Positions 6,517 to 16,246 of a stretch of 16,246 nucleotides of DNA are shown here, one piece after another. The notes beneath the pieces were generated by a model. It did no database searches. It saw only the letters and a program-made list of their open reading frames with translations, and was not told the DNA's origin. How positions within the stretch are numbered: the first letter of the stretch is position 1; every line of letters starts with the position of its first letter. A program made the position numbers and the translations under genes. Origin of the DNA: a virus (Duplodnaviria; Heunggongvirae; Uroviricota; Caudoviricetes); the IMG/VR virus record IMGVR_UViG_2698536348_000016; one strand, given 5' to 3'.

Positions 6517-7509
6517 TCACTCTTTCTCCATGTTCAGCGGGAAATGACAGGCATAGAGATGATTTTTCGCCCCCGTCAAACGTGGCGTCACAATGCATTC
6601 TCGTTGTGCATACGGGCAACGTGGCCCCAGACGACAACCAATCGGTAACTGTTCCAGCAGTGGGATAGCGCCGGGCAGCGTATTGAGGCGACTTTTATGC
6701 GGCATCGCGCTGCCGAAGTCTGGTATCGCGCGGATCAGCGCCTGGGTATAAGGATGATGTGGCATCGTCACCAACTCCTTACTCGGCGCGGTTTCCACTG
6801 TTTGACCGCAGTAAAGCACGTTAATTTTATCCGCCCATTGGCTAAGCATTTGTAAGTCATGGCTGATAAGCAAAATAGTGGTATTGCTGTTTTGGTTGAG
6901 ACGCGTCAGCAGGCGAAAGATTTGCGCCTGGGTTGTTGGCTCCATTGAGTTGGTCGGTTCGTCAGCAATCAGCAGACGCGGTTGATTCGCCAGTGCAATG
7001 GCTATCATCACTTTCTGACATTCACCTTCGGTCAACTCATAGGGAAAACTGCGCATCGCATCTTTGTGATCTTTAATCCCCACGCGGTGCAGCAGTTCAA
7101 TGGCACGGCGTTTGCGCCAGCCAAAACGCTGCCACCAACGGCCTTTATAGGTCCAGGCTGGGATGTTTTGCATCAACTGGCGACCCACACGTTCTGAAGG
7201 GTCAAGACACGACTGCGGTTCCTGGAAAATCATCGACACGTTATGGCCAACCAGTTTGCGCCGTTCGCGTGCGGAGAGACGCAGCAAATCGATATCATCA
7301 AAACGCATACGGTCAGCAGTAACACGCCAGTTATCTTTATTCACCCCACAAATCGCTTTCGCAATCAAACTCTTGCCGGAACCGGATTCACCAACAAGAC
7401 CGCGGATTTCACCTTCGGTTAAGGTCATACTTACCCGGTCGACGGCTTTAACCCACTCATCACCGGTTTTAAATTCAATGGTCAGGTTACGAATATCGAG
7501 TAATGGCAT
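6517..7509 (-). CDS. sapD: Peptide ABC transporter ATP-binding protein SapD
   Basis: 330-aa [29 protein letters not shown]... with Walker A GESGSGKS; start overlaps the sapC stop. Confidence 0.95.
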
Positions 7510-8399
7510 TATTCCACCCCCGCAATAATCGCACGACGAACGCCATCGCCAAGGAGGTTAACCAACAACACGCTAATCATAATTGCCGCACCTGGCAGCA
7601 TGACAGTCCACGGGGCGACATAAATCAGTTCCAGCGCATCACCGAGCATCGCTCCCCATTCAGGCGAGGGGAGTTGTGCGCCGAGATCGAGAAAGCCCAG
7701 CGCGGCGATATCGAGAATTGCCATCGACAGTGCGCGGGTGATCTCGGTGACCAGCCCGGCGGTGATGTTTGGCATCACAGCAAACCAGAGAATATTCAGC
7801 GTTGATGCGCCATCCAGACGGGCGGCGATAACGTACTCTTTTTCCAGTTCGTCATGCACCATGCTGTAAATCGAACGTACCATACGCGGCAGCAATGCCA
7901 GCCAGACAGCAAACATAGCGTGGGACAAACTCGGTCCGGCAAACGCTACAACGATAATTGCCAACAGCAGCGAAGGGATCGCCAGTAAGGTATCCAGAAT
8001 ATGGTTAAGCACCGCTGAGCGGAGGCCGTGTGTCGCCCCGGCGAAGGTGCCCAGTACCAGGCCACAGATCGTCGCGGCAAGCGTCACCACAAATGCGCCA
8101 CCCACGGTTGGCGCAGCTCCGCTCAGTAAACGGCTTAAAACATCGCGTCCGAGGTCGTCAGTCCCCAGGAAGAAAGAAACTTCGCCATAGCGCGACCATG
8201 ACGGCGGCAATAATTGATAACCGAGAAATTGCTGGTCGATGCCGTAAGGCGCAAACCAGCCGCCAAAAATACACAGTACAGCCAGCCCCGCGCAGCCGTA
8301 CAGGCCGACCATCGCAGAGGCGTCACTATAAAATTTGCGCCAGGCGGTACGCAGCGTGCCCGGCGGGCGCTTTTCGCTGTATACGCTATCGTAAGGCAT
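7509..8399 (-). CDS. sapC: Peptide ABC transporter permease SapC
   Basis: 296-aa [38 protein letters not shown]..., multi-TM permease; RBS GAAGG 6 nt upstream of the ATG at 8399. Confidence 0.95.
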
Positions 8400-8533
8400 G
8401 ATTACCTTCTTTAAACTTATTTGCTTTGATTCGTTTTGCTTTAGTTTTTTCTTTCATTTCAATCACATGCCATATTTAGGTGCTTTATTCTTGTTTGTTG
8501 CTATTCGTTTCTTGTAGTTCCAATTTAAGAAAA
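8400..8533. other. Host/prophage junction region (candidate attL and integrase arm-site region)
   Basis: Composition switches abruptly to AT-rich non-coding DNA immediately upstream of the sapC ATG; short direct repeats (TTGCTTT x2, TTCTTGT x2). No sapB reading frame is present. The exact core is not determinable without an empty-site sequence. Confidence 0.45.
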
Positions 8534-8535
8534 AT

Positions 8536-8574
8536 GTGTACACTAAAGTGTATACGAAACACGAGGGTGTACAC
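8536..8574 (+). promoter_or_regulatory. Three copies of the 8-bp palindrome GTGTA(C/T)AC overlapping the integrase RBS/start (candidate operator)
   Basis: GTGTACAC at 8536..8543, GTGTATAC at 8548..8555, GTGTACAC at 8567..8574; the last overlaps the GAGGG RBS. Confidence 0.5.
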
Positions 8575-8575
8575 A

Positions 8576-9763
8576 TTGCTCACCGATACAAAACTAAGAA
8601 AGTCTCTTGGCAAAAAACGAGACAAAATCGAAGTGCTTTCTGATGCACAAGGGCTGAATGTTCGGTTATCAACTTCCGGCAGTATAACATTTTTTTACCG
8701 CTACCGATGGAATGGCAAGGCTGCACAACTGGCGATCGGCAGTTATCCGTCCATTTCATTGGCTCAGGCCAGGGAGCGTCGCCAGCAGTTTAGAGACTGG
8801 CTCACTGAGGGACTGGATCCCCGTCGTCAGGTTATGCTGGAAAAGCAGAAAAAGTCTCAGGCTATGACCGTTAAAGAAGCATTTGATTACTGGGAGCAAC
8901 ATTATTGTATTCCCGAAGGTCTGAAAAAACTGAAGGTCAACAGGCGCGATTTTAATAACCACATTGCGCCCGTACTAGGAAATGTCATTGTCGAACAGAC
9001 AACAAAAGCTCACTGGCTGAGCCTGTTTGATTCGATGGGACGCCGTGTGGTCACTGGGCAGATGCTGGGCTTAATGCAACGAACTTTCAGGTTTTGTTCA
9101 AACAGGGGGGTGATAAGCATTAATCCGCTTGAAAGCCTGAGGCGTTCAGATGTGGGCATGGCTGCGGCAACCAGAGACAGGAAACTGAGCGATGAAGAGA
9201 TCAAGATTGTCTGGTCGGCTTTGTCTGATATGGGGGAAAGGCAGAAGCTGGTTGTTAAATTTCTTCTTATGACGGGGTGCAGAACCGCAGAGATTAGAAC
9301 AGCAAGATGGGAATGGTTCGATTTTAACGAGAATACATGGACTGTTCCTGCAAGCGAATATAAAACGGGTAAGACCGTCAGAAGAGCGTTGCCTCCGGCG
9401 ATCGTGAAACTGATGCAGGAAGTGAAGAAAACCTCCGTTTCTCAGCATGTTCTTACGCGGGCAAGATATAACGGCCCTGAAGATGATAAGCCACCGCAAC
9501 AACCTCATATCGCTTTGTTTTCTGCTCAGATCATCGCTAAAACGGGGATGAAAACATGGTCCCTTCATGACTTGAGAAGAACGGTGGCAACACGATTATC
9601 CGAGTTAGGTGCGCCACCACATGTGGTTGAAAAGTTATTAGGGCATCATATGTCCGGCGTAATGGCTCGTTATAATCTGCATGATTATCTCGAAGATCAA
9701 AGGCATTGGTTGCAGGTGTGGCAGAATTATCTTGAAGGGTTAGTTGATGCGCCATTAACCTGA
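8576..9763 (+). CDS. int: Tyrosine recombinase/integrase, P4/CP4-57-like with N-terminal arm-binding (DUF4102-type) domain
   Basis: ORF 8480..9763. N-terminal LTDTKLRKSLGKKRDK...GLNVRL...FFYRYRWNGK...SLAQARERR fits the arm-binding domain; catalytic motifs TGCRTAEIR, HDLRRT, LGHH...ARY. Start chosen at TTG 8576 (GAGGG RBS 7 nt upstream, N-terminus then aligns with LTD-type integrase starts); in-frame ATG at 8534 is the alternative. Confidence 0.88.
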   Translation: MLTDTKLRKSLGKKRDKIEVLSDAQGLNVRLSTSGSITFFYRYRWNGKAAQLAIGSYPSISLAQARERRQQFRDWLTEGLDPRRQVMLEKQKKSQAMTVKEAFDYWEQHYCIPEGLKKLKVNRRDFNNHIAPVLGNVIVEQTTKAHWLSLFDSMGRRVVTGQMLGLMQRTFRFCSNRGVISINPLESLRRSDVGMAAATRDRKLSDEEIKIVWSALSDMGERQKLVVKFLLMTGCRTAEIRTARWEWFDFNENTWTVPASEYKTGKTVRRALPPAIVKLMQEVKKTSVSQHVLTRARYNGPEDDKPPQQPHIALFSAQIIAKTGMKTWSLHDLRRTVATRLSELGAPPHVVEKLLGHHMSGVMARYNLHDYLEDQRHWLQVWQNYLEGLVDAPLT

Positions 9764-9969
9764 GCATTATTTCTTTCCCACTCCAGAATATCAGAAAGCC
9801 ACCAACGATTGGGGTTTCCCTTTATTGTTGGTTTAGGAAATGGTTTGCTGAGGGACTTTGGCTTTCTGTCTGGAGTACTCCAGAAATACAGAGTGCTTCG
9901 TGAAATTTTATATCGTTCCAGAATATCTTTGGTTAACAAGATTTCATTTGTTTTTGTAATGTCGTTCAT
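9727..9969 (-). CDS. AlpA/excisionase-like small DNA-binding protein
   Basis: 80-aa ORF with GGAG RBS 7 nt upstream; ...ILLTKDILERYKISRSTLYFW...FPKPTIKGNPNRWWLSDILEWERNN resembles AlpA/Xis-type winged-helix proteins; 3' end overlaps the integrase 3' end by 37 nt convergently. Confidence 0.65.
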   Translation of the reverse strand: MNDITKTNEILLTKDILERYKISRSTLYFWSTPDRKPKSLSKPFPKPTIKGNPNRWWLSDILEWERNNAQVNGASTNPSR

Positions 9970-10000
9970 TTTATTCTCCAGTTGAATTGTTTAATCATCG

Positions 10001-10021
10001 AAAAACCGCCCGAAGGCGGTT
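10001..10021 (-). terminator. Intrinsic terminator (minus strand) between the 83-aa ORF and the xis-like gene
   Basis: AACCGCC cgaa GGCGGTT hairpin; on the minus strand it is followed by TTTTT. Confidence 0.55.
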
Positions 10022-10022
10022 G

Positions 10023-10274
10023 TCAGTTGATTGATGTGCGGCGCATTTTGCGAAGGCTGGCAATATGCTTTTCCTTCTCAATTTCTGCTTTAATCATGTG
10101 TAGTTCGTTGTGATCGATTCGCTCAAATTCTGCATTAAATGCGCTAATTGAAGCGGCTCTGGTTCTCCCATCCAGCCTTCGGAAGATTACCTGCGTCAGA
10201 GTGATTTTGCAGACTTCAACCGGATAGTTGTTGGCATCGACGAAAGACTGCCCGCGCTGGATTAGAACGAACAC
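10023..10274 (-). CDS. Hypothetical prophage protein (83 aa, GTG start)
   Basis: ORF from track with AAGGA about 9 nt upstream of the GTG; basic C-terminus; lies in the slot between exo and xis where lambdoid phages carry small early genes. No recognisable motif. Confidence 0.4.
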   Translation of the reverse strand: MFVLIQRGQSFVDANNYPVEVCKITLTQVIFRRLDGRTRAASISAFNAEFERIDHNELHMIKAEIEKEKHIASLRKMRRTSIN

Positions 10275-10322
10275 CGGTAGTATTCCTTAATTGTCATATC
10301 ATTTGCACCTCGTTGCTACTGG

Positions 10323-11003
10323 CTATCGCCATTGCTCCCCAAATACAAAACCAATTTCAGCCAGTGCCTCGTCCATTTTTTCGATGAACTCCGGTACCAT
10401 TTCGTCAAAAACCTCCATGTATTTTTCATCCCGTTCGACCACGACATAATGCAGGCCTTCACGCTTCATACGCGGGTCATAGTTGGCAAAGTACCAGGCA
10501 TCTTTTCGCGTCACCCACATGCTGTACTGCACCTGGGCCATGTAAGCCGACTTTATGGCCTCGAAACCACCGAGCCGGAATTTCATGAAATCCCGGGAGG
10601 TAAACGGGCATTTCAGTTCAAGGCCGTTGCCGTCACTGCATAAACCATCGGGAGAGCAGGCGGTGCGCATACTTTCGTCGCGATAGATGATCGGGGATTC
10701 AGTAACATTCACGCCGGAAGTGAACTCAAAGAGGGCTCTGGCGTCGTTCTCGTACTGTTTTCCCCAGGCCAGCGCTTTAGCGTTAACTTCCGGAGCCACA
10801 CCGGTGCAAACCTCAGCCAGCAGGGTGTGGAAGTAGGACATTTTCATGTCAGGCCATTTCTTTCCTGAGCGGGGTTTTGCTATCACGTTGTGAACTTCTG
10901 AAGCGGTGATGACGCCGAGCCGTAATTTGTGCCACGCATCATCCCCCTGTTCGACAGCTCTCACGTCGATCCCTGTACGTTGCAGGATAATGTCCGGTGT
11001 CAT
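10323..11003 (-). CDS. exo: Lambda-type exonuclease (Red alpha, Exo)
   Basis: 226-aa [53 protein letters not shown]..., near-identical to lambda Exo as I recall it; start overlaps the bet stop. Confidence 0.96.
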
Positions 11004-11785
11004 GCTGCTACCTTCTGCTCTGTGACTTTCTGTTTCAGGAATCCAAGAACCTTCACAGCTTCAGCCTGTGTTAGTTCTGAAGATGTGTAAATGTTGCGGC
11101 GAAAAATCTGGGAACAGAGCGGCAACAGGTCGTCATCCCACGTTTTTTCCATGGAAGTAAGAAGGGCGTTAATTTCCGACATGGTTTCTTCGTTAACCGG
11201 GGTGATGTCGCGTTCCGGCTGACGTTCTGTAGTATATGCAGTATTTTCGACAATACGCTCGGCTTCATCCTTGTCATAGATGCCAGCAAATCCGAAGGCC
11301 AGGCGAGCACACTGAATCATGGCTTTGTGCCGTAACATCCGTTTGGGATGCGACTGCCACGGTCCGGTGATTTCTCTGCCTTCGCGGGTTTTGAATGGTG
11401 CGCGGCGACATTCATCCATCCACTCGGTAACGCAGATCGGGTGATTGCGATCTTTGCGGTAAATCCGGCATGTACAGGACTCATTGTCCTGCTCAAAGTC
11501 CATGCCATCAAACTGCTGGTTTTCATTGATAATGCGGGACCAGCCATCAACGCCAACCACCGGAACGATGCCGTTCTGCTTGTCAGGGAAGGCGTAAATT
11601 TCTTTCGTCCAGGGATTAAGGCCGTACTGGTTGGCGACGATCAACAATGCGATAAATTGCGCATCGCTGGCATCACCTTTAAATGCCGTCTGGCGAAGAG
11701 TGGTGATTAGTTCCTGTGGGTCGACAGAATCCATGCCGACACGTTCAGCCAGCTTCCCTGCCAGCGTTGCGAGTGCTGTACTCAT
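11000..11785 (-). CDS. bet: Lambda-type single-strand annealing protein (Red beta, Bet)
   Basis: 261-aa [69 protein letters not shown]..., matches lambda Bet. Confidence 0.96.
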
Positions 11786-11790
11786 CCGTT

Positions 11791-12087
11791 TTATACCTCT
11801 GAATCAATATTAATTTGGTGACGGGCGATGGTTTCAGCCATGTAGCGGATGTGTTCTGCCATGCGTTCCTGAAAATCGACATCGTCATCAAATGCACGGG
11901 AAATAGCTTTTTTGCTGGCCCCGTGACGTTGCAGATTATCGATGCATAGCGATTCAAACAGGTGTTGGGGCAGACCTTTTTCCAGGTCGTCTGCCAGCTC
12001 AGCTTCAGTTTCTTCACGGGCAATTTGCTGGTAGTGTCGTGCCCATGACTGCTCTTCAATGCGATCGGGGATAAGCCAGGCATTCAT
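11791..12087 (-). CDS. gam: Gam (RecBCD inhibitor), short GamS-length form
   Basis: 98-aa [29 protein letters not shown]...[20 protein letters not shown], matches the C-terminal 98 aa of lambda Gam; ATGA overlap with the upstream ORF. Confidence 0.9.
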
Positions 12088-12494
12088 GATTTATCACCTT
12101 CGAAATTTTCAAGCCTGTTGGCAATCATGATGGCGATATCAGGGATTGCTGGCGCTGTGGCTATACATGCGGGGTTGGCGCACAAACCATAGACGGCGGC
12201 AATCACGAGCTGTCTTTTCCAGTCGAGAGTTACTGGCTCAGAATTGGCGTCATCGCCGGACGTATCACTGCCTGGCTCGTTCTGAACAACGGTTTCGCCC
12301 TCCTGAGCGGCATCAACAGAGTTTTCCTGAATGATCTTCTCCTCAGTTTGTGCTGAGTCTTCTCCATCAGCGGCGTCATTTTCTCCAAAAGTTTCAGCGT
12401 AAGTTTCATCTCCCATTACTGGACCACAGTCAGGGCAATGGCCGCCACCGTTCTGACTGCATGTGGTGCAAACCTTTTCCACTTCCTGTTGCAT
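12084..12494 (-). CDS. Hypothetical zinc-ribbon / acidic protein in the kil position upstream of gam
   Basis: ORF 12084..12551 begins at GTG; first ATG at 12494 gives [25 protein letters not shown] (CxxC...CxxC), then a strongly acidic segment, then a hydrophobic/Cys-containing C-terminus. Translationally coupled to gam. Confidence 0.55.
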
Positions 12495-12623
12495 TACTGG
12501 CCCTGGAAGTGGGAGCGAGTCTGCGCCGCGCTGCGGGAGCTGAACAAGCACCGGGATATTGTTCGACAGATTGTCGATTCATCCGGTCGTATTGTGTCGG
12601 AAAAGTGATTGCCGGAGGCGCTT

Positions 12624-13019
12624 ATGGCGAAACCTTTTACACACGAACAGCGGGAAGAACTGAAGGCACGAATTATCGGATTGGTACGCAAAAATGAACG
12701 CATGACGATATCGCAACTGGAGAGAGCGACGGGAGCAGGCTGGCATTCAGTCAGACGTTGCCTTGTGGATGTACTGGCTTGTGGCGATTTATACATGTCC
12801 GGTAAATACGGTGTTTTTGCATCAGAACAGGTGTATCGCGTATGGCGTAAGACACCGGAGAAAACAACTGACCAGACATTGATTCGAAAGTTACCAGACG
12901 GAGAAATTCGCCGCTACGATAGACGCCTGAACATAATCTGTCGCGAGTGCCGGAATAGTGAAGTTATGCAGCGCGTGCTGGCTTTCTATCAGGGGAATTT
13001 TCAGGAGGCGGTACTGTGA
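12624..13019 (+). CDS. Hypothetical protein (131 aa), first gene of the opposite-strand cassette
   Basis: ATG at 12624 with GGAGG RBS 5 nt upstream; MAKPFTHEQREELKARIIGLVRKNERMTISQLERATGAGWHSVRRC...; possible helix-turn-helix-like segment; family unknown. Confidence 0.6.
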   Translation: MAKPFTHEQREELKARIIGLVRKNERMTISQLERATGAGWHSVRRCLVDVLACGDLYMSGKYGVFASEQVYRVWRKTPEKTTDQTLIRKLPDGEIRRYDRRLNIICRECRNSEVMQRVLAFYQGNFQEAVL

Positions 13020-13075
13020 GTAAATTAGCTATCAGGCTTCAATTGTCGCTGGCATTCGCATCAAAGGAGAATGAG

Positions 13076-13660
13076 ATGACCACTTTTACAAAAGAGCAGT
13101 TAATCAGTCATGTTAGTGAAAATGTAAAGGCGATGAAATTTGCAGTAAAACAGACAGCATTCAAAAATTCTCTCGAGGCAATTGAGTTGGATTTAGCACT
13201 GGCCCTTGTTGCTCAGGCTTCGCTGGAAGCAGAGCCCGTGCTTTATATGAATCGATTTACCGGAAAGACATTCTCACTGGAAGAGCAACCCGGTGCTGAT
13301 AAGGAACCGGAAATATACGTGCCGCTATATGCTGCCCCGCCAGACAGCGCCGCCATGCTTCAGGCTGGAAACTTTCGGGAAAAGAAGGGTTCGTCAACCA
13401 ATAATTTTCGGGAAATCTCGGAAACGTCAACCAACCATCCGGTAACTCTGGATGGTTGGATAAGCTGTAGTGAGCGAATGCCGGATGACGGTCAGCACGT
13501 AATTATTTTATGTGATGGCGCATTCGTTCTTTATGCGCAATATCGAGACGGTGAGTTTTTTGATGTAGTCCGTGATGGTGATGAATTTTTCGAAACACAG
13601 AGCCGCAATGTAACCGACTGGATGCCGCTACCAGAACCGCCGCAGGAGGTGCGCCAATGA
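13076..13660 (+). CDS. Hypothetical protein with C-terminal DUF551-like domain
   Basis: ATG at 13076 with AAGGAG RBS 7 nt upstream; C-terminus ...DGWISCSERMPDDGQHVIIL...VTDWMPLPEPP resembles the phage DUF551 motif; internal tandem repeat (NFRE...STN x2) at 13369..13434. Confidence 0.7.
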   Translation: MTTFTKEQLISHVSENVKAMKFAVKQTAFKNSLEAIELDLALALVAQASLEAEPVLYMNRFTGKTFSLEEQPGADKEPEIYVPLYAAPPDSAAMLQAGNFREKKGSSTNNFREISETSTNHPVTLDGWISCSERMPDDGQHVIILCDGAFVLYAQYRDGEFFDVVRDGDEFFETQSRNVTDWMPLPEPPQEVRQ

Positions 13661-13740
13661 ACTGGCCTGAAGCATTTGCAATTACAGGCGTTGCTATGGC
13701 TATCACCTTTTTAGTATATGTTATTTGTCGGTGGGGGTAA
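13657..13740 (+). CDS. Small hydrophobic peptide (27 aa), translationally coupled to the upstream gene
   Basis: ATGA overlap with the stop of the preceding gene; MNWPEAFAITGVAMAITFLVYVICRWG, single predicted TM segment; below the ORF-track length cutoff. Confidence 0.35.
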   Translation: MNWPEAFAITGVAMAITFLVYVICRWG

Positions 13741-13775
13741 AAACGTTCGCCGGGATTAACACCAAAGGAGGGAAT

Positions 13776-13880
13776 ATGTCGGATGATATATCACTGGCAA
13801 TGGAAGGTGCGCTGGCTGTTGTTGCTGTTGTGGGCGTTTACTGCCTGGTTGTGTTTTTGATGGATCGACTAGGGAACTGA
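13776..13880 (+). CDS. Small hydrophobic peptide (34 aa)
   Basis: AAGGAGGG RBS 4 to 5 nt upstream of ATG; MSDDISLAMEGALAVVAVVGVYCLVVFLMDRLGN, single predicted TM segment. Confidence 0.45.
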   Translation: MSDDISLAMEGALAVVAVVGVYCLVVFLMDRLGN

Positions 13881-13890
13881 ATTCATTACG

Positions 13891-13908
13891 ATATGGGAAT
13901 TCCCATAT
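13891..13908. repeat. Perfect 18-bp palindrome ATATGGGAATTCCCATAT
   Basis: Self-complementary 18-mer 11 nt downstream of the peptide stop and just upstream of the putative hok promoter. Confidence 0.6.
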
Positions 13909-13922
13909 CGGGTAAAAACGGT

Positions 13923-13950
13923 TTGCGGTAAAGCGAGAGTTAAGTAGAAT
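13923..13950 (+). promoter_or_regulatory. Putative hok mRNA promoter
   Basis: TTGCGG (-35), 16-nt spacer, TAGAAT (-10); predicted 5' end near 13957 (GGGTGCTTGAGG), which is complementary to the 3' segment 14331..14343. Confidence 0.35.
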
Positions 13951-13994
13951 TGCTGCGGGTGCTTGAGGCTGTCTGCCTCGGGCATGCCACCGTA

Positions 13995-14090
13995 AGGCAG
14001 ACAGAGAAAAGCCCCAGTTAACATTACGCGTCCTGCAAGACGCCTAACATTAATCTGAGGCCAATTTCATGCTAGACACATGTAGGTTAG
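13995..14090 (-). ncRNA. Expected Sok-like antisense RNA region (approximate)
   Basis: Inferred from hok/sok architecture: antisense to the leader and upstream in-frame start; minus strand has TTGCCT, 17 nt, TAACCT promoter-like hexamers near 14113..14085 and hairpin GCGTC ctgcaa GACGC (plus 14027..14042). Boundaries not resolved. Confidence 0.3.
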
Positions 14091-14125
14091 CCTCTTACGC
14101 GCCGAAAGGCAAGGAGAAGCAGGCT

Positions 14126-14281
14126 ATGAAGCAGCAAAAGGCGATGTTAGTCGCCCTGATCGTCATCTGTATTACCGTCGTAGTGACGGCACTGGTAACG
14201 AGGAAAGACCTCTGCGAGGTACGAATCCGAACCGGTCAGACGGAGGTTGCTGTCTTCACAGCTTACGAACCTGAGGAGTAA
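14126..14281 (+). CDS. hok: Hok/Gef-family type I toxin (51 aa)
   Basis: MKQQKAMLVALIVICITVVVTALVTRKDLCEVRIRTGQTEVAVFTAYEPEE, close to HokD/HokC (Gef) as I recall them; AAGGAG RBS 9 nt upstream; ORF track 14069..14281 includes an in-frame upstream ATG. Confidence 0.9.
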   Translation: MKQQKAMLVALIVICITVVVTALVTRKDLCEVRIRTGQTEVAVFTAYEPEE

Positions 14282-14349
14282 GAGACCAGGCGAGGGAGAA
14301 ATCCCTCGCCACCTCTGATGTGTCAGGCATCCTCAACGCACCCGCACTT

Positions 14350-14371
14350 AACCCGCTTCGGCGGGTTTTTT
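14350..14371 (+). terminator. Intrinsic terminator of the hok transcript
   Basis: AACCCGC ttcg GCGGGTT followed by a T6 run; the same 20-mer recurs at 15191..15210. Confidence 0.7.
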
Positions 14372-14490
14372 CACTTACTGTGGTTGTGAATACGATTGGT
14401 ATTAGGCTATGCTAACAACATTAGCCTGACTAATTTTGTATTGACTTGATTTTTGTTAAAGAACAGGACGGAGAAGTAAGGGTACACCCA

Positions 14491-14670
14491 ATGAGCTACG
14501 CACTAAAAAAACACCCGCGATTGACTATTCCCCCTCGCGATAAAAGCGTTGTGGCAGCTCCGCGCCCGGCTATCGATGAAAATTGCACTCATCGTGAGCA
14601 GGTGAAAAATGCTTTCGATTTCGGTTTTTCTCGTTACGAGAAGGCAATGGAAGAACTTTCAAAAGTGTAA
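14491..14670 (+). CDS. Small protein (59 aa), candidate antitoxin partner of the Doc-family toxin
   Basis: ATG at 14491 (ORF track starts at TTG 14446); MSYALKKHPRLTIPPRDKSVVAAPRPAIDENCTHREQVKNAFDFGFSRYEKAMEELSKV; stop 18 nt before the toxin ATG. Not Phd-like by eye, so the role is inferred from position only. Confidence 0.4.
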   Translation: MSYALKKHPRLTIPPRDKSVVAAPRPAIDENCTHREQVKNAFDFGFSRYEKAMEELSKV

Positions 14671-14688
14671 TGATGGGTATTGTGCTCT

Positions 14689-15174
14689 ATGGCTGAGATT
14701 GTTGAAGGAGTGCACTACCTTTCGTTTGATGATCTTACCGAAATTAATCGCCTTTTAATTGAGCTTCAAACACCAGATGAACCTGTTAGTGTGCTGAGTG
14801 TTGATAATTTAAGTTCTTCTCAGTCTCGTCCCAGCATGGTTCGATGGTATGAACAGACTAATGACATGTTTGTACTGGCATCAGTATTGATTGAAAGTCT
14901 GATTCAGAATCATCCATTTGCTAATGCAAACAAACGAACAGCTATGATGGCTGGTTATGTCTTCTTGTTGTTGAATGGCTATGAGTTAACAGCACCAGGC
15001 GATGAAATCGTGGAAATGGCAGAGGGACTGGCCTGCAAAACCTATACTCGAGAAGATCTCGAGAACTGGTTGTGTTATTGGTCTCGTGCGTATGACAGCC
15101 GGGAATTATGTAAAACAGGCGCAACTATTGTTTTGTATGAAACTATCAAGCTTAAAATAGAACAGCAAAACTAA
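14689..15174 (+). CDS. Doc-family (Fic-fold) toxin
   Basis: Contains HPFANANKRTAMMAGYVFLLLNGYEL, matching the Doc motif H-x-F-x-(D/N)-(A/G)-N-K-R and following helix (P1 Doc has HIFNDANKRTALNSALLFLRRNG as I recall). ATG 14689 chosen; TTG 14680 is the alternative. Confidence 0.8.
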   Translation: MAEIVEGVHYLSFDDLTEINRLLIELQTPDEPVSVLSVDNLSSSQSRPSMVRWYEQTNDMFVLASVLIESLIQNHPFANANKRTAMMAGYVFLLLNGYELTAPGDEIVEMAEGLACKTYTREDLENWLCYWSRAYDSRELCKTGATIVLYETIKLKIEQQN

Positions 15175-15188
15175 AGGTGCTTCTAATG

Positions 15189-15210
15189 AAAACCCGCTTC
15201 GGCGGGTTTT
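15189..15210. terminator. Bidirectional intrinsic terminator between convergent doc-like and higA-like genes
   Basis: AAAACCCGC ttcg GCGGGTTTT: perfect hairpin with an A-run upstream and T-run downstream. Confidence 0.7.
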
Positions 15211-15224
15211 GTTGTATTGGAGTA

Positions 15225-15542
15225 TCATGATATTACCTGGATCCCGTTTTTCTCTACGACTGAAAGAAGGCGAAGAGCGGCACCTCCCGGCCGTTTTACA
15301 CCACGTTCCCAGTCTGATATCAGGTTTTTACTGACGTTGAGGTATCTGGCAAAAACAGGTTGAGACAGATGCTCTCGTTCGCGCAGTGCACGGATCCTTT
15401 CCGGAGACATTACCGGCGCTGGCTGGAGACAAGTTTCATCGAATTCTCGCATAGTCTGTTTCGTTACTGCGCCGATATCATGAAGCGATTCCATCATTTC
15501 ATGTACGGATGCAAGCGCATCACTGCGGTAATTTTTACTCAT
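15225..15542 (-). CDS. HigA-like antitoxin (XRE-family HTH)
   Basis: 105-aa ORF MSKNYRSDALASVHEMMESLHDIGAVTKQTMREFDETCLQPAPVMSPERIRALREREHLSQPVFARYLNVSKNLISDWERG...; ATG overlaps the last codons of the upstream toxin frame (CCCAATGAGTAA), toxin-first order typical of higBA. Confidence 0.85.
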   Translation of the reverse strand: MSKNYRSDALASVHEMMESLHDIGAVTKQTMREFDETCLQPAPVMSPERIRALREREHLSQPVFARYLNVSKNLISDWERGVKRPGGAALRLLSVVEKNGIQVIS

Positions 15543-15905
15543 TGGGTACCTCCGTAAACTGACCCTGTAGAATCAGTTGTGCCAGTTGTTCATCTGTTAG
15601 ATTGAGTACGTGAGGAGCCGCCTTCCGAAATGCACTTTCCGCAGTAGCGGTTATATTTTCACGTTCATTTTTTGCGTATGCATATACGAAAAAGGCCCTT
15701 GTGCCGACGCGATAGAAAATGATTGTGCGATAACCGCCAGATTTGCCGCCACCGACTCGTGGCAGACGTTGCTTGATAACGCCGTTACCCAGGTTTGCTG
15801 AGATAAGCCCGTTATCAGCCTGTTTAACAATTTCGCGCAGTGATTGGTCGGATATTTTGTTTTGCGTGCAAATCGCTCAAACCAGGCGTTTTTAAAAATG
15901 CGCAT
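15535..15905 (-). pseudogene. HigB/Gp49-like RelE-superfamily toxin, disrupted by a frameshift in an A-run
   Basis: ATG at 15905 gives MRIFKNAWFERFARK, then the frame derails to the unrelated tail of ORF 15651..15968; the -1 frame continues NKISDQSLREIVKQADNGLISANLGNGVIKQRLPRVGGGKSGGYRTIIFYRVGTRAFFVYAYAKNEREN...QFTEVPNE to a stop at 15535 but has no start codon of its own. Break maps to the A4 run at plus 15860..15863. Confidence 0.75.
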
Positions 15906-15926
15906 TTTTTGTTCCGTTATTAATGT

Positions 15927-15941
15927 ATAACACATAGTGTT
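15927..15941 (-). promoter_or_regulatory. Candidate operator palindrome upstream of the higB-like gene
   Basis: TAACAC ata GTGTTA perfect 6-bp inverted repeat about 22 to 36 nt upstream of the toxin ATG. Confidence 0.4.
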
Positions 15942-15972
15942 ACATTGCGTAGGGATCTGCAATGCCATCAGT

Positions 15973-16002
15973 TTGACAACGTCGCGTGTTCGGGGCTATA
16001 TT
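15973..16002 (+). promoter_or_regulatory. Near-consensus sigma70-type promoter
   Basis: TTGACA (15973..15978), 18-nt spacer, TATATT (15997..16002); divergent from the higB-like promoter region. Confidence 0.5.
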
Positions 16003-16007
16003 CCTCA

Positions 16008-16083
16008 CGCGCCAGCAAAACCTGGCGTCGGGATTAGCACCCCGGATATCGAAACGGTGCATAACCGCGCTGGCGGTTTTTTT
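16008..16083 (+). ncRNA. Candidate small RNA or terminated leader (about 76 nt)
   Basis: Lies between the promoter above and an intrinsic terminator AACCGC gctg GCGGTT plus T7 (16063..16083); contains a further hairpin CGCCAG caaaac CTGGCG; the only ORF across it is a GTG-started frame that reads through the terminator. Confidence 0.4.
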
Positions 16084-16246
16084 ATGCGCTAAGCACAGTC
16101 ACATTCGCGATTTATGGCGGGCTGTGTGGGGGAGCCGAATGAGGTGTACTGACAATAGCGGACACTACCATTTGTTCTTTTTTTAAGCAGCTATCTGATG
16201 ATATTTTTCCCTGAAGGCTGCCGGGGAGATATTCCCCAGACGAGAG

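Follow-up and report, generated by a model that had tools for sequence, protein, structure and literature searches.

A toxin-rich cassette beside the Red genes of an Escherichia coli prophage contig is probably the displaced accessory region of a rightward early operon

The stretch of DNA analysed here (the window; IMG/VR record IMGVR_UViG_2698536348_000016) is the entire draft contig CYDI01000065.1 of 16,246 bp from assembly GCA_001285245.1. The Escherichia coli (E. coli) chromosomal genes rnb, fabI, sapF, sapD and sapC come first in the window and are followed by a prophage, in which a cassette of plus-strand genes at 12624-15215 lies next to the leftward Red genes gam (11791-12087), bet (11000-11785) and exo (10323-11003). 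A first-pass annotation, made from the letters alone, counted seven genes in this cassette; all of them are present between these positions, with strong family matches in Pfam, NCBIfam, PHROG and Rfam. They encode a DUF977 protein of 131 amino acids (aa), a 194-aa DUF551 protein, two small hydrophobic peptides, a Hok toxin, a 59-aa protein and a Doc toxin. All cassette genes but one are assignable to known families. The opposite strand orientation of the cassette relative to the Red genes is also confirmed, as the genes diverge from exo-bet-gam. The same annotation placed the cassette in a slot equivalent to that of lambda sieB and ral and read it as a possible exclusion or abortive-infection island. 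Comparison with intact relatives points to a different location and to a mosaic of unrelated units.

In the intact prophages of E. coli ML35 and O104:H4, the gene order cro-cII-O-P-DUF1627-DUF977-DUF551-34aa-hokD-59aa-Doc is observed. Doc is followed by a helix-turn-helix (HTH)/RelE pair on the opposite strand, ORF6N, ninB, ninE, rusA, ninH, Q, the lysis genes and terminase, and the distance from the cassette to the recE-family gene in intact relatives is ~8.5-9 kb. The conservation of gene set and order across prophages, a check that the first-pass annotation had proposed, was thus examined directly: the order is constant in ML35 and O104:H4, and the whole cassette is found in 44 complete E. 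coli genomes. A probe that combines the cassette with the P-like replication gene and DUF1627 is covered to at least 80% in 44 complete genomes, and the cassette alone is also found in 44; from this sequence comparison, the canonical order appears to be shared by all 44 genomes with the whole cassette. In strains M11 and 103605, hok and the 59aa-Doc pair follow DUF1627 and precede the RusA/DUF1133 genes, and in the cultured phage vB_Apl-pPE4, DUF551 and hok are located after the replication genes. The cargo of the slot from DUF1627 to nin differs among prophages. These arrangements support the reading that the cassette consists of accessory genes in the promoter-distal part of a rightward early (pR-type) operon, in an E. 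coli prophage of the Rac/lambda-like kind, that it lies between the replication and the nin/Q genes as a mosaic of independent units, and that it adjoins gam and recE through a 10,077-bp gap; we put the probability of this reading at roughly 0.85.

Judged by gene order, the position of the cassette is that of the lambda ren-to-nin interval and not that of sieB/ral. The argument from position is void because intact relatives place the cassette downstream of the replication genes, in the rightward operon. The lambda sieB/ral region, which is located between N and the Red/kil genes, resembles the cassette only in the apparent adjacency to Red genes in this contig, whereas its operon, strand logic and gene families are all unlike those of the cassette, and no open reading frame (ORF) exhibits homology to SieB or Ral by Pfam, NCBIfam or PHROG. 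The adjacency to the Red genes is itself true of the contig but specific to it, being produced by the 10,077-bp gap relative to the near-identical ML35 prophage.

The gap is delimited by two collinear matches. Window positions 7411-12506 are 100% identical to the ML35 prophage up to ML35 position 2165095, and positions 12506-16139 correspond to ML35 from 2175172 onward with one mismatch in 3634 bp (at 13821); contig and ML35 part ways at 16139. The ML35 segment of 10,077 bp between the two matches is absent from the window. At the junction, which comparison with ML35 places at 12506, the microhomology amounts to 1 bp (G), and both breakpoints are intragenic, on the left in the recE-family gene and on the right in DUF1627. 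The intact RecE-family gene annotated in ML35 comprises 2073 bp and 690 aa, of which ~140 codons persist in the window as a minus-strand 3´ remnant at 12084..12506, identified from the ML35 annotation and from profile matches. The DUF1627 coding sequence of ML35 (7333-8103 of the extracted ML35 locus) spans the right breakpoint, located at 8001 therein, and its last 33 codons and stop codon remain on the plus strand at 12507..12608. In ML35 and O104:H4, the missing segment carries kil, a KilA-N or DUF1828 gene, a LexA-family repressor gene, cro and cII, along with O-like and DnaC-like genes; it also includes the remaining three-quarters of the recE-family gene and the larger part of DUF1627.

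A leftward ORF of 155 aa (12084-12551) crosses the junction and is a chimera, the first 15 codons of which are antisense DUF1627 sequence. It matches NCBIfam exodeoxyribonuclease VIII (E 2.2e-15) and PHROG 607 (E 1e-19) at internal and C-terminal profile positions only. A kil-like gene had been proposed next to the cassette, but no kil is present in the window, and this ORF was ruled out as Kil by the ML35 annotation and the NCBIfam match, which identify it as the tail of a RecE-family gene. The recE-family gene is mosaic near the breakpoint (compare window 12494-12520). In one metagenomic contig it is split into ORFs of 541 and 136 aa that overlap at ATGA, and another draft contig carries a different upstream sequence joined a few bases from the recE breakpoint of the window. 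Other contigs that seemed to be broken at the same site turned out to be intact or to carry mosaic recE variants with a different junction.

The first gene of the cassette (12624-13019, plus strand) encodes the 131-aa protein, which matches Pfam DUF977 with E 1.8e-66. On profile and fold evidence, it is a winged-helix DUF977 protein homologous to lambda Ren. The protein matches PHROG 142, 'Ren-like exclusion protein', with E 8e-46, and lambda Ren itself by BLASTP with E 3e-7; hhalign of a profile of 16 DUF977 proteins against Ren gives a probability of 96.2% and E 2.2e-9 over Ren residues 5-93 of 96. A C-terminal motif, ECRxSxxMxRVLAxY, is common to DUF977 proteins and Ren. In the AlphaFold model, residues 11-70 have a predicted local distance difference test (pLDDT) score >90 and form a confident N-terminal winged helix, and the top PDB fold matches are all winged-helix DNA-binding domains (IclR, GntR, MarR and Z-alpha types), with weak E values of ~5e-3 to 3e-2. 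This agrees with an earlier profile-based assignment (PMC2686095). The possible HTH that the first-pass annotation noticed in this protein is therefore borne out by model and fold matches, and the protein no longer belongs among those with no assignable function.

The likeness to lambda Ren extends to position at the tail of the replication module, to homology over nearly all of Ren and to membership in the same PHROG family. P-like, DUF1627 and DUF977 genes occur in that order in ML35, O104:H4 and M11. In lambda, ren directly follows P, whereas in these prophages the DUF1627 gene lies between the P-like gene and DUF977. Ren is also shorter, with 96 aa compared with the 131 aa of the DUF977 protein, which carries an insertion of ~20 residues, and Ren falls below the Pfam DUF977 threshold. 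That DUF977 is readable as the Ren family is a useful point for annotation, and the link is already implicit in the PHROGs. Fusions of DUF977 with Fic domains are known (PMC2686095). An obligatory link between DUF977 and Doc was considered and ruled out, as the Doc pair occurs without DUF977 in 103605, in Ewingella, in Pseudomonas phages and in a context beside dinI/umuDC.

The second gene (13076-13660, plus strand) encodes the 194-aa protein, in which the DUF551 domain is C-terminal and covers residues 127-190 (Pfam E 1.1e-20; PHROG 60 E 1.4e-42), in line with the DUF551-like label given at first reading. DUF551 is a portable domain that is also found in Ea22 variant V2 of Stx phages and in YfdS of prophage CPS-53 (PMC10834534). 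The 27-aa hydrophobic ORF (13657-13740, plus strand) begins with an ATG that overlaps the DUF551 stop codon (ATGA). In Stx and Shigella phages, DUF551 genes are likewise followed by a stretch homologous to this ORF (75% nucleotide identity), and in its homolog from Shigella phage POCJ13 the peptide ends (PEAFAI...ICRWG) and the hydrophobic core are kept despite the 25% nucleotide divergence. The 34-aa hydrophobic ORF (13776-13880, plus strand) is preceded by a strong Shine-Dalgarno sequence, AAAGGAGGG, and corresponds to RefSeq WP_001278450.1; the segment is present in 677 of 5426 complete E. coli genomes with at most 5 copies each. Both small ORFs are probably coding.

The hok/sok locus (13957..14369, plus strand) is delimited by an Rfam model, by PF01848 and by a terminator hairpin. 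Rfam RF01794, which describes the hok leader and the sok target, matches in full length at 13957-14131 with 116.9 bits (E 4e-27; gathering score 59). The hok gene (14126-14281) is overlapped by the frame of the 70-aa mok (14069-14281). The Hok peptide matches PF01848 with E 1.4e-23 and PHROG 251 with E 1.8e-32, so that together with the Rfam leader the earlier identification of hok stands; the match to the NCBIfam Hok subfamily has E 6.8e-13, but its 48 bits are below the curated cut-off of 73. A candidate promoter, TTGCGG-16-TAGAAT, ends at 13950, just 5´ of 13957, where the Rfam match begins, and terminator hairpins are predicted after hok (14350-14367) and after Doc (15189-15210). As predicted from these elements, the hok/sok type I toxin-antitoxin locus is complete, with its own candidate promoter and terminator. 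The sok RNA would be located on the minus strand at ~14007-14077, a position taken from the sokW annotation of phage 933W.

The locus shares its make-up with hokW/sokW of 933W and with hokD (relF) of the Qin prophage, namely a Hok peptide, a mok frame that overlaps it, a leader with the sok target, and a terminator. In the pieces that align with 933W, ~92% of the nucleotides match. The 933W locus is located at the prophage end near attR, beside a DUF551/EaA gene, whereas the hok/sok of the cassette lies in the post-replication region. By the usual mechanism, a stable hok mRNA would be restrained by the unstable sok antisense RNA, and Hok would kill by membrane damage.

The last gene of the cassette (14689-15174, plus strand) encodes a 161-aa Doc protein. 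It matches TIGR01550 with E 1.3e-35 and 122 bits against a cut-off of 38.65, and Pfam Fic with E 2.9e-11, and its closest solved relative is PDB 9vzc_A, 'Death-on-curing family protein' (E 1e-12). The Doc-type motif is HxFx(D/N)(A/G)NKR. The cassette Doc carries this motif as HPFANANKR, and BLASTP aligns it with P1 Doc across the catalytic motif (E 4e-9; HPFANANKRTA in the window and HIFNDANKRTA in P1). The TIGR01550 score and the P1 alignment uphold the claim of a Doc-family toxin. If it acts like P1 Doc, the toxin would arrest translation by phosphorylating EF-Tu.

The gene of the 59-aa protein (14491-14670, plus strand) ends 18 nucleotides (nt) before the Doc start. The protein belongs to PHROG 2208, and no match was found in Pfam, NCBIfam, the PDB sequences or the PDB folds. 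Its family comprises 39 representative clusters at E <=0.001 among 1.84 billion proteins, nearly all of them stand-alone proteins of 38-95 aa, and 17 clusters at 90% identity. In every context inspected, the gene is located directly upstream of a Fic/Doc gene, in at least 7 unrelated prophage settings from E. coli, Salmonella, Ewingella, an enterobacterial contig and two Pseudomonas phages. The pair lies inside a myovirus tail/baseplate cluster in Ewingella, beside dinI/umuDC in another context, and beside hok, ParDE and VapBC in a Rac-like prophage of Salmonella; two other E. coli prophages, in M11 and 103605, also carry it. In the Pseudomonas phages Sirocco and LPPA56, the pair is found beside the integrase, with a small protein that is 57-59% identical and a Doc homolog that is likewise 57-59% identical. 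The pair occurs in 125 complete E. coli genomes and is whole in 125/125. The Salmonella enterica contigs carry rightward replication genes with hok, 59aa-Doc, ParDE and VapBC, and then kilR, ydaE and recE in the same orientation; one would not expect such an order in a single lambdoid prophage, and it suggests either a rearrangement or prophages in tandem.

The 59aa-Doc module is a discrete insertion of 841 bp (14370..15210), which comprises the 59-aa gene, Doc and a second copy of a terminator hairpin. It is recognised as such because of a flanking repeat and an empty site in another genome. An exact 20-nt direct repeat, AACCCGCTTCGGCGGGTTTT, which contains the terminator hairpin, is located at 14350-14369 and again at 15191-15210 and brackets the pair. 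In the prophage of E. coli 2012C-4606, hok is followed by a single hairpin and the HTH/RelE pair with no Doc module in between, as expected of an empty site. The guanine-cytosine (GC) content of the module is 0.40-0.43, compared with ~0.50 in the flanks. In its discrete boundaries, own terminator, lower GC content and empty site, the module resembles the lambdoid morons, which are promoter-gene-terminator insertions. Morons have an autonomous promoter, whereas that of 59aa-Doc is not identified with confidence. An imperfect palindrome at ~14395-14435 was examined and rejected; it folds no better than 9/200 shuffles (z = -1.9), and a repeat search gave no inverted repeat at this site.

The strict pairing with Doc makes the 59-aa protein a probable antitoxin, so that the first-pass view of a protein with no assignable function holds for its family matches and not for its likely role. 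It is probably a cognate antitoxin of Doc that is unrelated to Phd. No relation of the family to Phd was detected (hhalign against P1 Phd, probability 0.4%), and a known antitoxin fold could not be assigned, given this lack of Phd homology and of PDB sequence or fold matches. In the AlphaFold model, the N-terminus is disordered and one helix is formed by residues 34-57 with pLDDT >90. Doc would most likely be neutralised via this conserved C-terminal helix.

The arrangement resembles P1 phd-doc in several respects: both are two-gene operons of a temperate phage carrier with the small gene first and a Doc-family Fic-fold toxin second, and the catalytic motif is shared. In P1, the upstream protein is Phd, whereas in the cassette it is an unrelated peptide that is predicted to be disordered with a single helix. 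P1 Doc has 126 aa compared with 161 aa in the cassette, with ~34% identity around the motif, and the P1 genes overlap, whereas the cassette genes are 18 nt apart. There is an even chance, in our estimate, that the 59-aa protein represents a class of Doc antitoxins not described before. Such a class would consist of proteins of ~50-60 aa that are largely disordered, with an IPxRDK motif, a C-terminal helix QVxNAF...RYEKAxxELSKV and no recognisable DNA-binding fold, and it would travel with the Doc kinase as a ~0.8-kb moron in prophages of Enterobacterales and Pseudomonas. If this is true, the pair might be regulated, or triggered by phage, differently from Phd-Doc. The novelty is modest and consists of an uncharacterised non-Phd family of Doc partners and of clean moron boundaries at a duplicated terminator hairpin.

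The junction at 12506 was sought in other sequences. The two halves are joined nowhere in the 5426 complete E. coli genomes, a 47-mer across the junction has no match in the GTDB species representatives, a 29-mer has none in the JGI metagenome contigs, and a search with both chimeric ORFs as queries was negative as well. This absence speaks for an assembly artefact, in which case the cassette would occupy its canonical place in a prophage that is intact or otherwise arranged; so do the short draft nature of the contig and the fact that the sequences on both sides are prophage, with several copies per genome. A real deletion is nevertheless favoured over misassembly because both sides match one prophage in the same order and orientation, as expected of a simple internal deletion, because they share only 1 bp, whereas graph assemblers would misjoin at shared k-mers, and because the identical contig was reported in 2 samples. 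We consider an artefact unlikely. A far less probable reading keeps the seven genes in a sieB/ral slot of the leftward operon, where they would act jointly as an exclusion or abortive-infection island and possibly as one undescribed system. It draws on the divergent abutment of the genes on gam and the recE remnant in the contig, on the clustering of three toxin-antitoxin modules and on the general knowledge that such modules can serve abortive infection. The toxin-rich content noted at first reading is indeed real, as hok/sok and 59aa-Doc are joined by a degenerate RelE/HTH pair just downstream. The island reading is opposed by the location of the cassette in the rightward operon of intact relatives, at the distance from the recE-family gene given above, by the truncation of both breakpoint genes, by the lack of any ORF that matches the SieB or Ral family, and by the independence of the components, among which the Doc pair is a separate 841-bp insertion. 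Matches to at least some part of the query region, mostly to hok, occur in 4988 complete E. coli genomes, the 34-aa segment is present in 677, 59aa-Doc in 125 and the whole cassette in 44; the parts thus assort independently and the Doc pair travels alone, which does not fit the suggestion that the unassigned genes form a single undescribed system. The profile and structure-prediction searches proposed for these proteins were run and gave DUF977/Ren with a winged helix for the 131-aa protein, DUF551 for the 194-aa protein and no family for the 59-aa protein. A scan of ten ORFs against PADLOC-DB v2 gave no significant match to a defence system, the marginal matches being those of Doc to PDC-S23 (E 0.002) and generic HTH matches of the downstream antitoxin.

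The favoured account is therefore a variable region that holds a mosaic of independent modules, not an undescribed multi-gene system. The units of the mosaic would be the Ren-family DUF977 gene, the DUF551 gene with the two small peptides, hok/sok, and the self-contained 841-bp 59aa-Doc insertion. For the biological role of the cassette, we infer prophage retention and/or abortive infection. That hok/sok and 59aa-Doc serve the lysogen mainly as anti-phage abortive-infection devices, and not as modules of prophage retention (addiction), is possible but the less likely emphasis. Such a role would suit the occurrence of 59aa-Doc at typical moron sites of unrelated prophages (the myovirus tail/baseplate cluster, integrases and dinI/umuDC) and its own terminator and different base composition, but the same features are equally expected of selfish addiction modules, no curated defence model is matched, and literature searches gave no experimental data. 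Searches of the literature on DUF977, on Doc in prophage defence and on lambdoid hok/doc arrangements found no description of the cassette. Several observations weigh against parts of the mosaic account as presented here. Among the sequences searched, this draft contig alone has the junction at 12506, and the POCJ13 homolog of the 27-aa ORF has a TAG stop at codon 3. Synteny and a monomer model are the basis for seeing an antitoxin in the 59-aa protein; that model shows no DNA-binding fold, which leaves the autoregulation typical of type II systems unexplained, and no convincing sigma-70 promoter is found upstream of the gene, where the best match is 8/12.

The supposed opposite-strand exclusion island is, on the favoured reading, what a common E. 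coli prophage normally carries as accessory genes after its replication module, displaced by a 10-kb gap that removes immunity and replication functions. Annotated copies of the arrangement occur in 44 complete genomes, those of the O104:H4 outbreak lineage among them; the cassette is ordinary and would not surprise a phage specialist. A real deletion would have cost the prophage its immunity region, its two early promoters and its replication genes and left it as a locked-in remnant. With pR deleted, DUF977, DUF551 and the peptides would be left with no evident promoter, and the toxin-antitoxin units would retain their own signals. No plus-strand promoter-like site of at least 8/12 occurs between the junction and the DUF977 start, and no convincing promoter was found upstream of DUF977.

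Downstream of the cassette, outside 12624-15215 but within the same accessory region, a toxin-antitoxin pair on the minus strand is convergent with the cassette. The 105-aa Xre-type HTH antitoxin (15225-15542; Pfam HTH_3 E 1e-7; PHROG 2104 E 3e-43) is intact. Three-frame translation shows that the gene of the RelE/ParE-family (PF06296) toxin (15535-15905) is inactivated by a frameshift: at codon 16, an A5 run has lost one nucleotide and reads A4 here. Full versions of 123 aa with AAAAA are found in E. coli 2013C-3033 and 2012C-4606. ML35 is identical to the window at the frameshift, and RefSeq annotates there a 112-aa product with a non-canonical start. A small RNA that resembles isrK and the c4 target follows on the plus strand (15996-16083, in the interval 15973-16083; Rfam isrK 74.3 bits, c4-a1b1 47.4 bits). 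A near-consensus promoter, TTGACA-18-TATATT (11/12), lies before it and a terminator closes it, and in ML35 an ORF6N antirepressor-like gene lies downstream of it. By analogy with the immI region of P1/P7, this suggests that an antirepressor may be controlled by an antisense RNA.

At the other end, the prophage starts with the integrase gene (8480-9763, plus strand), which is followed by leftward genes that begin with an excisionase-like gene and a DUF4222 gene and continue with exo, bet and gam. The integrase start is located 80 bp past sapC (window 8399-8480), and the sap operon appears to be the insertion site, with the prophage in the expected place of sapB. The contig holds this one prophage end, and the other lies outside it.

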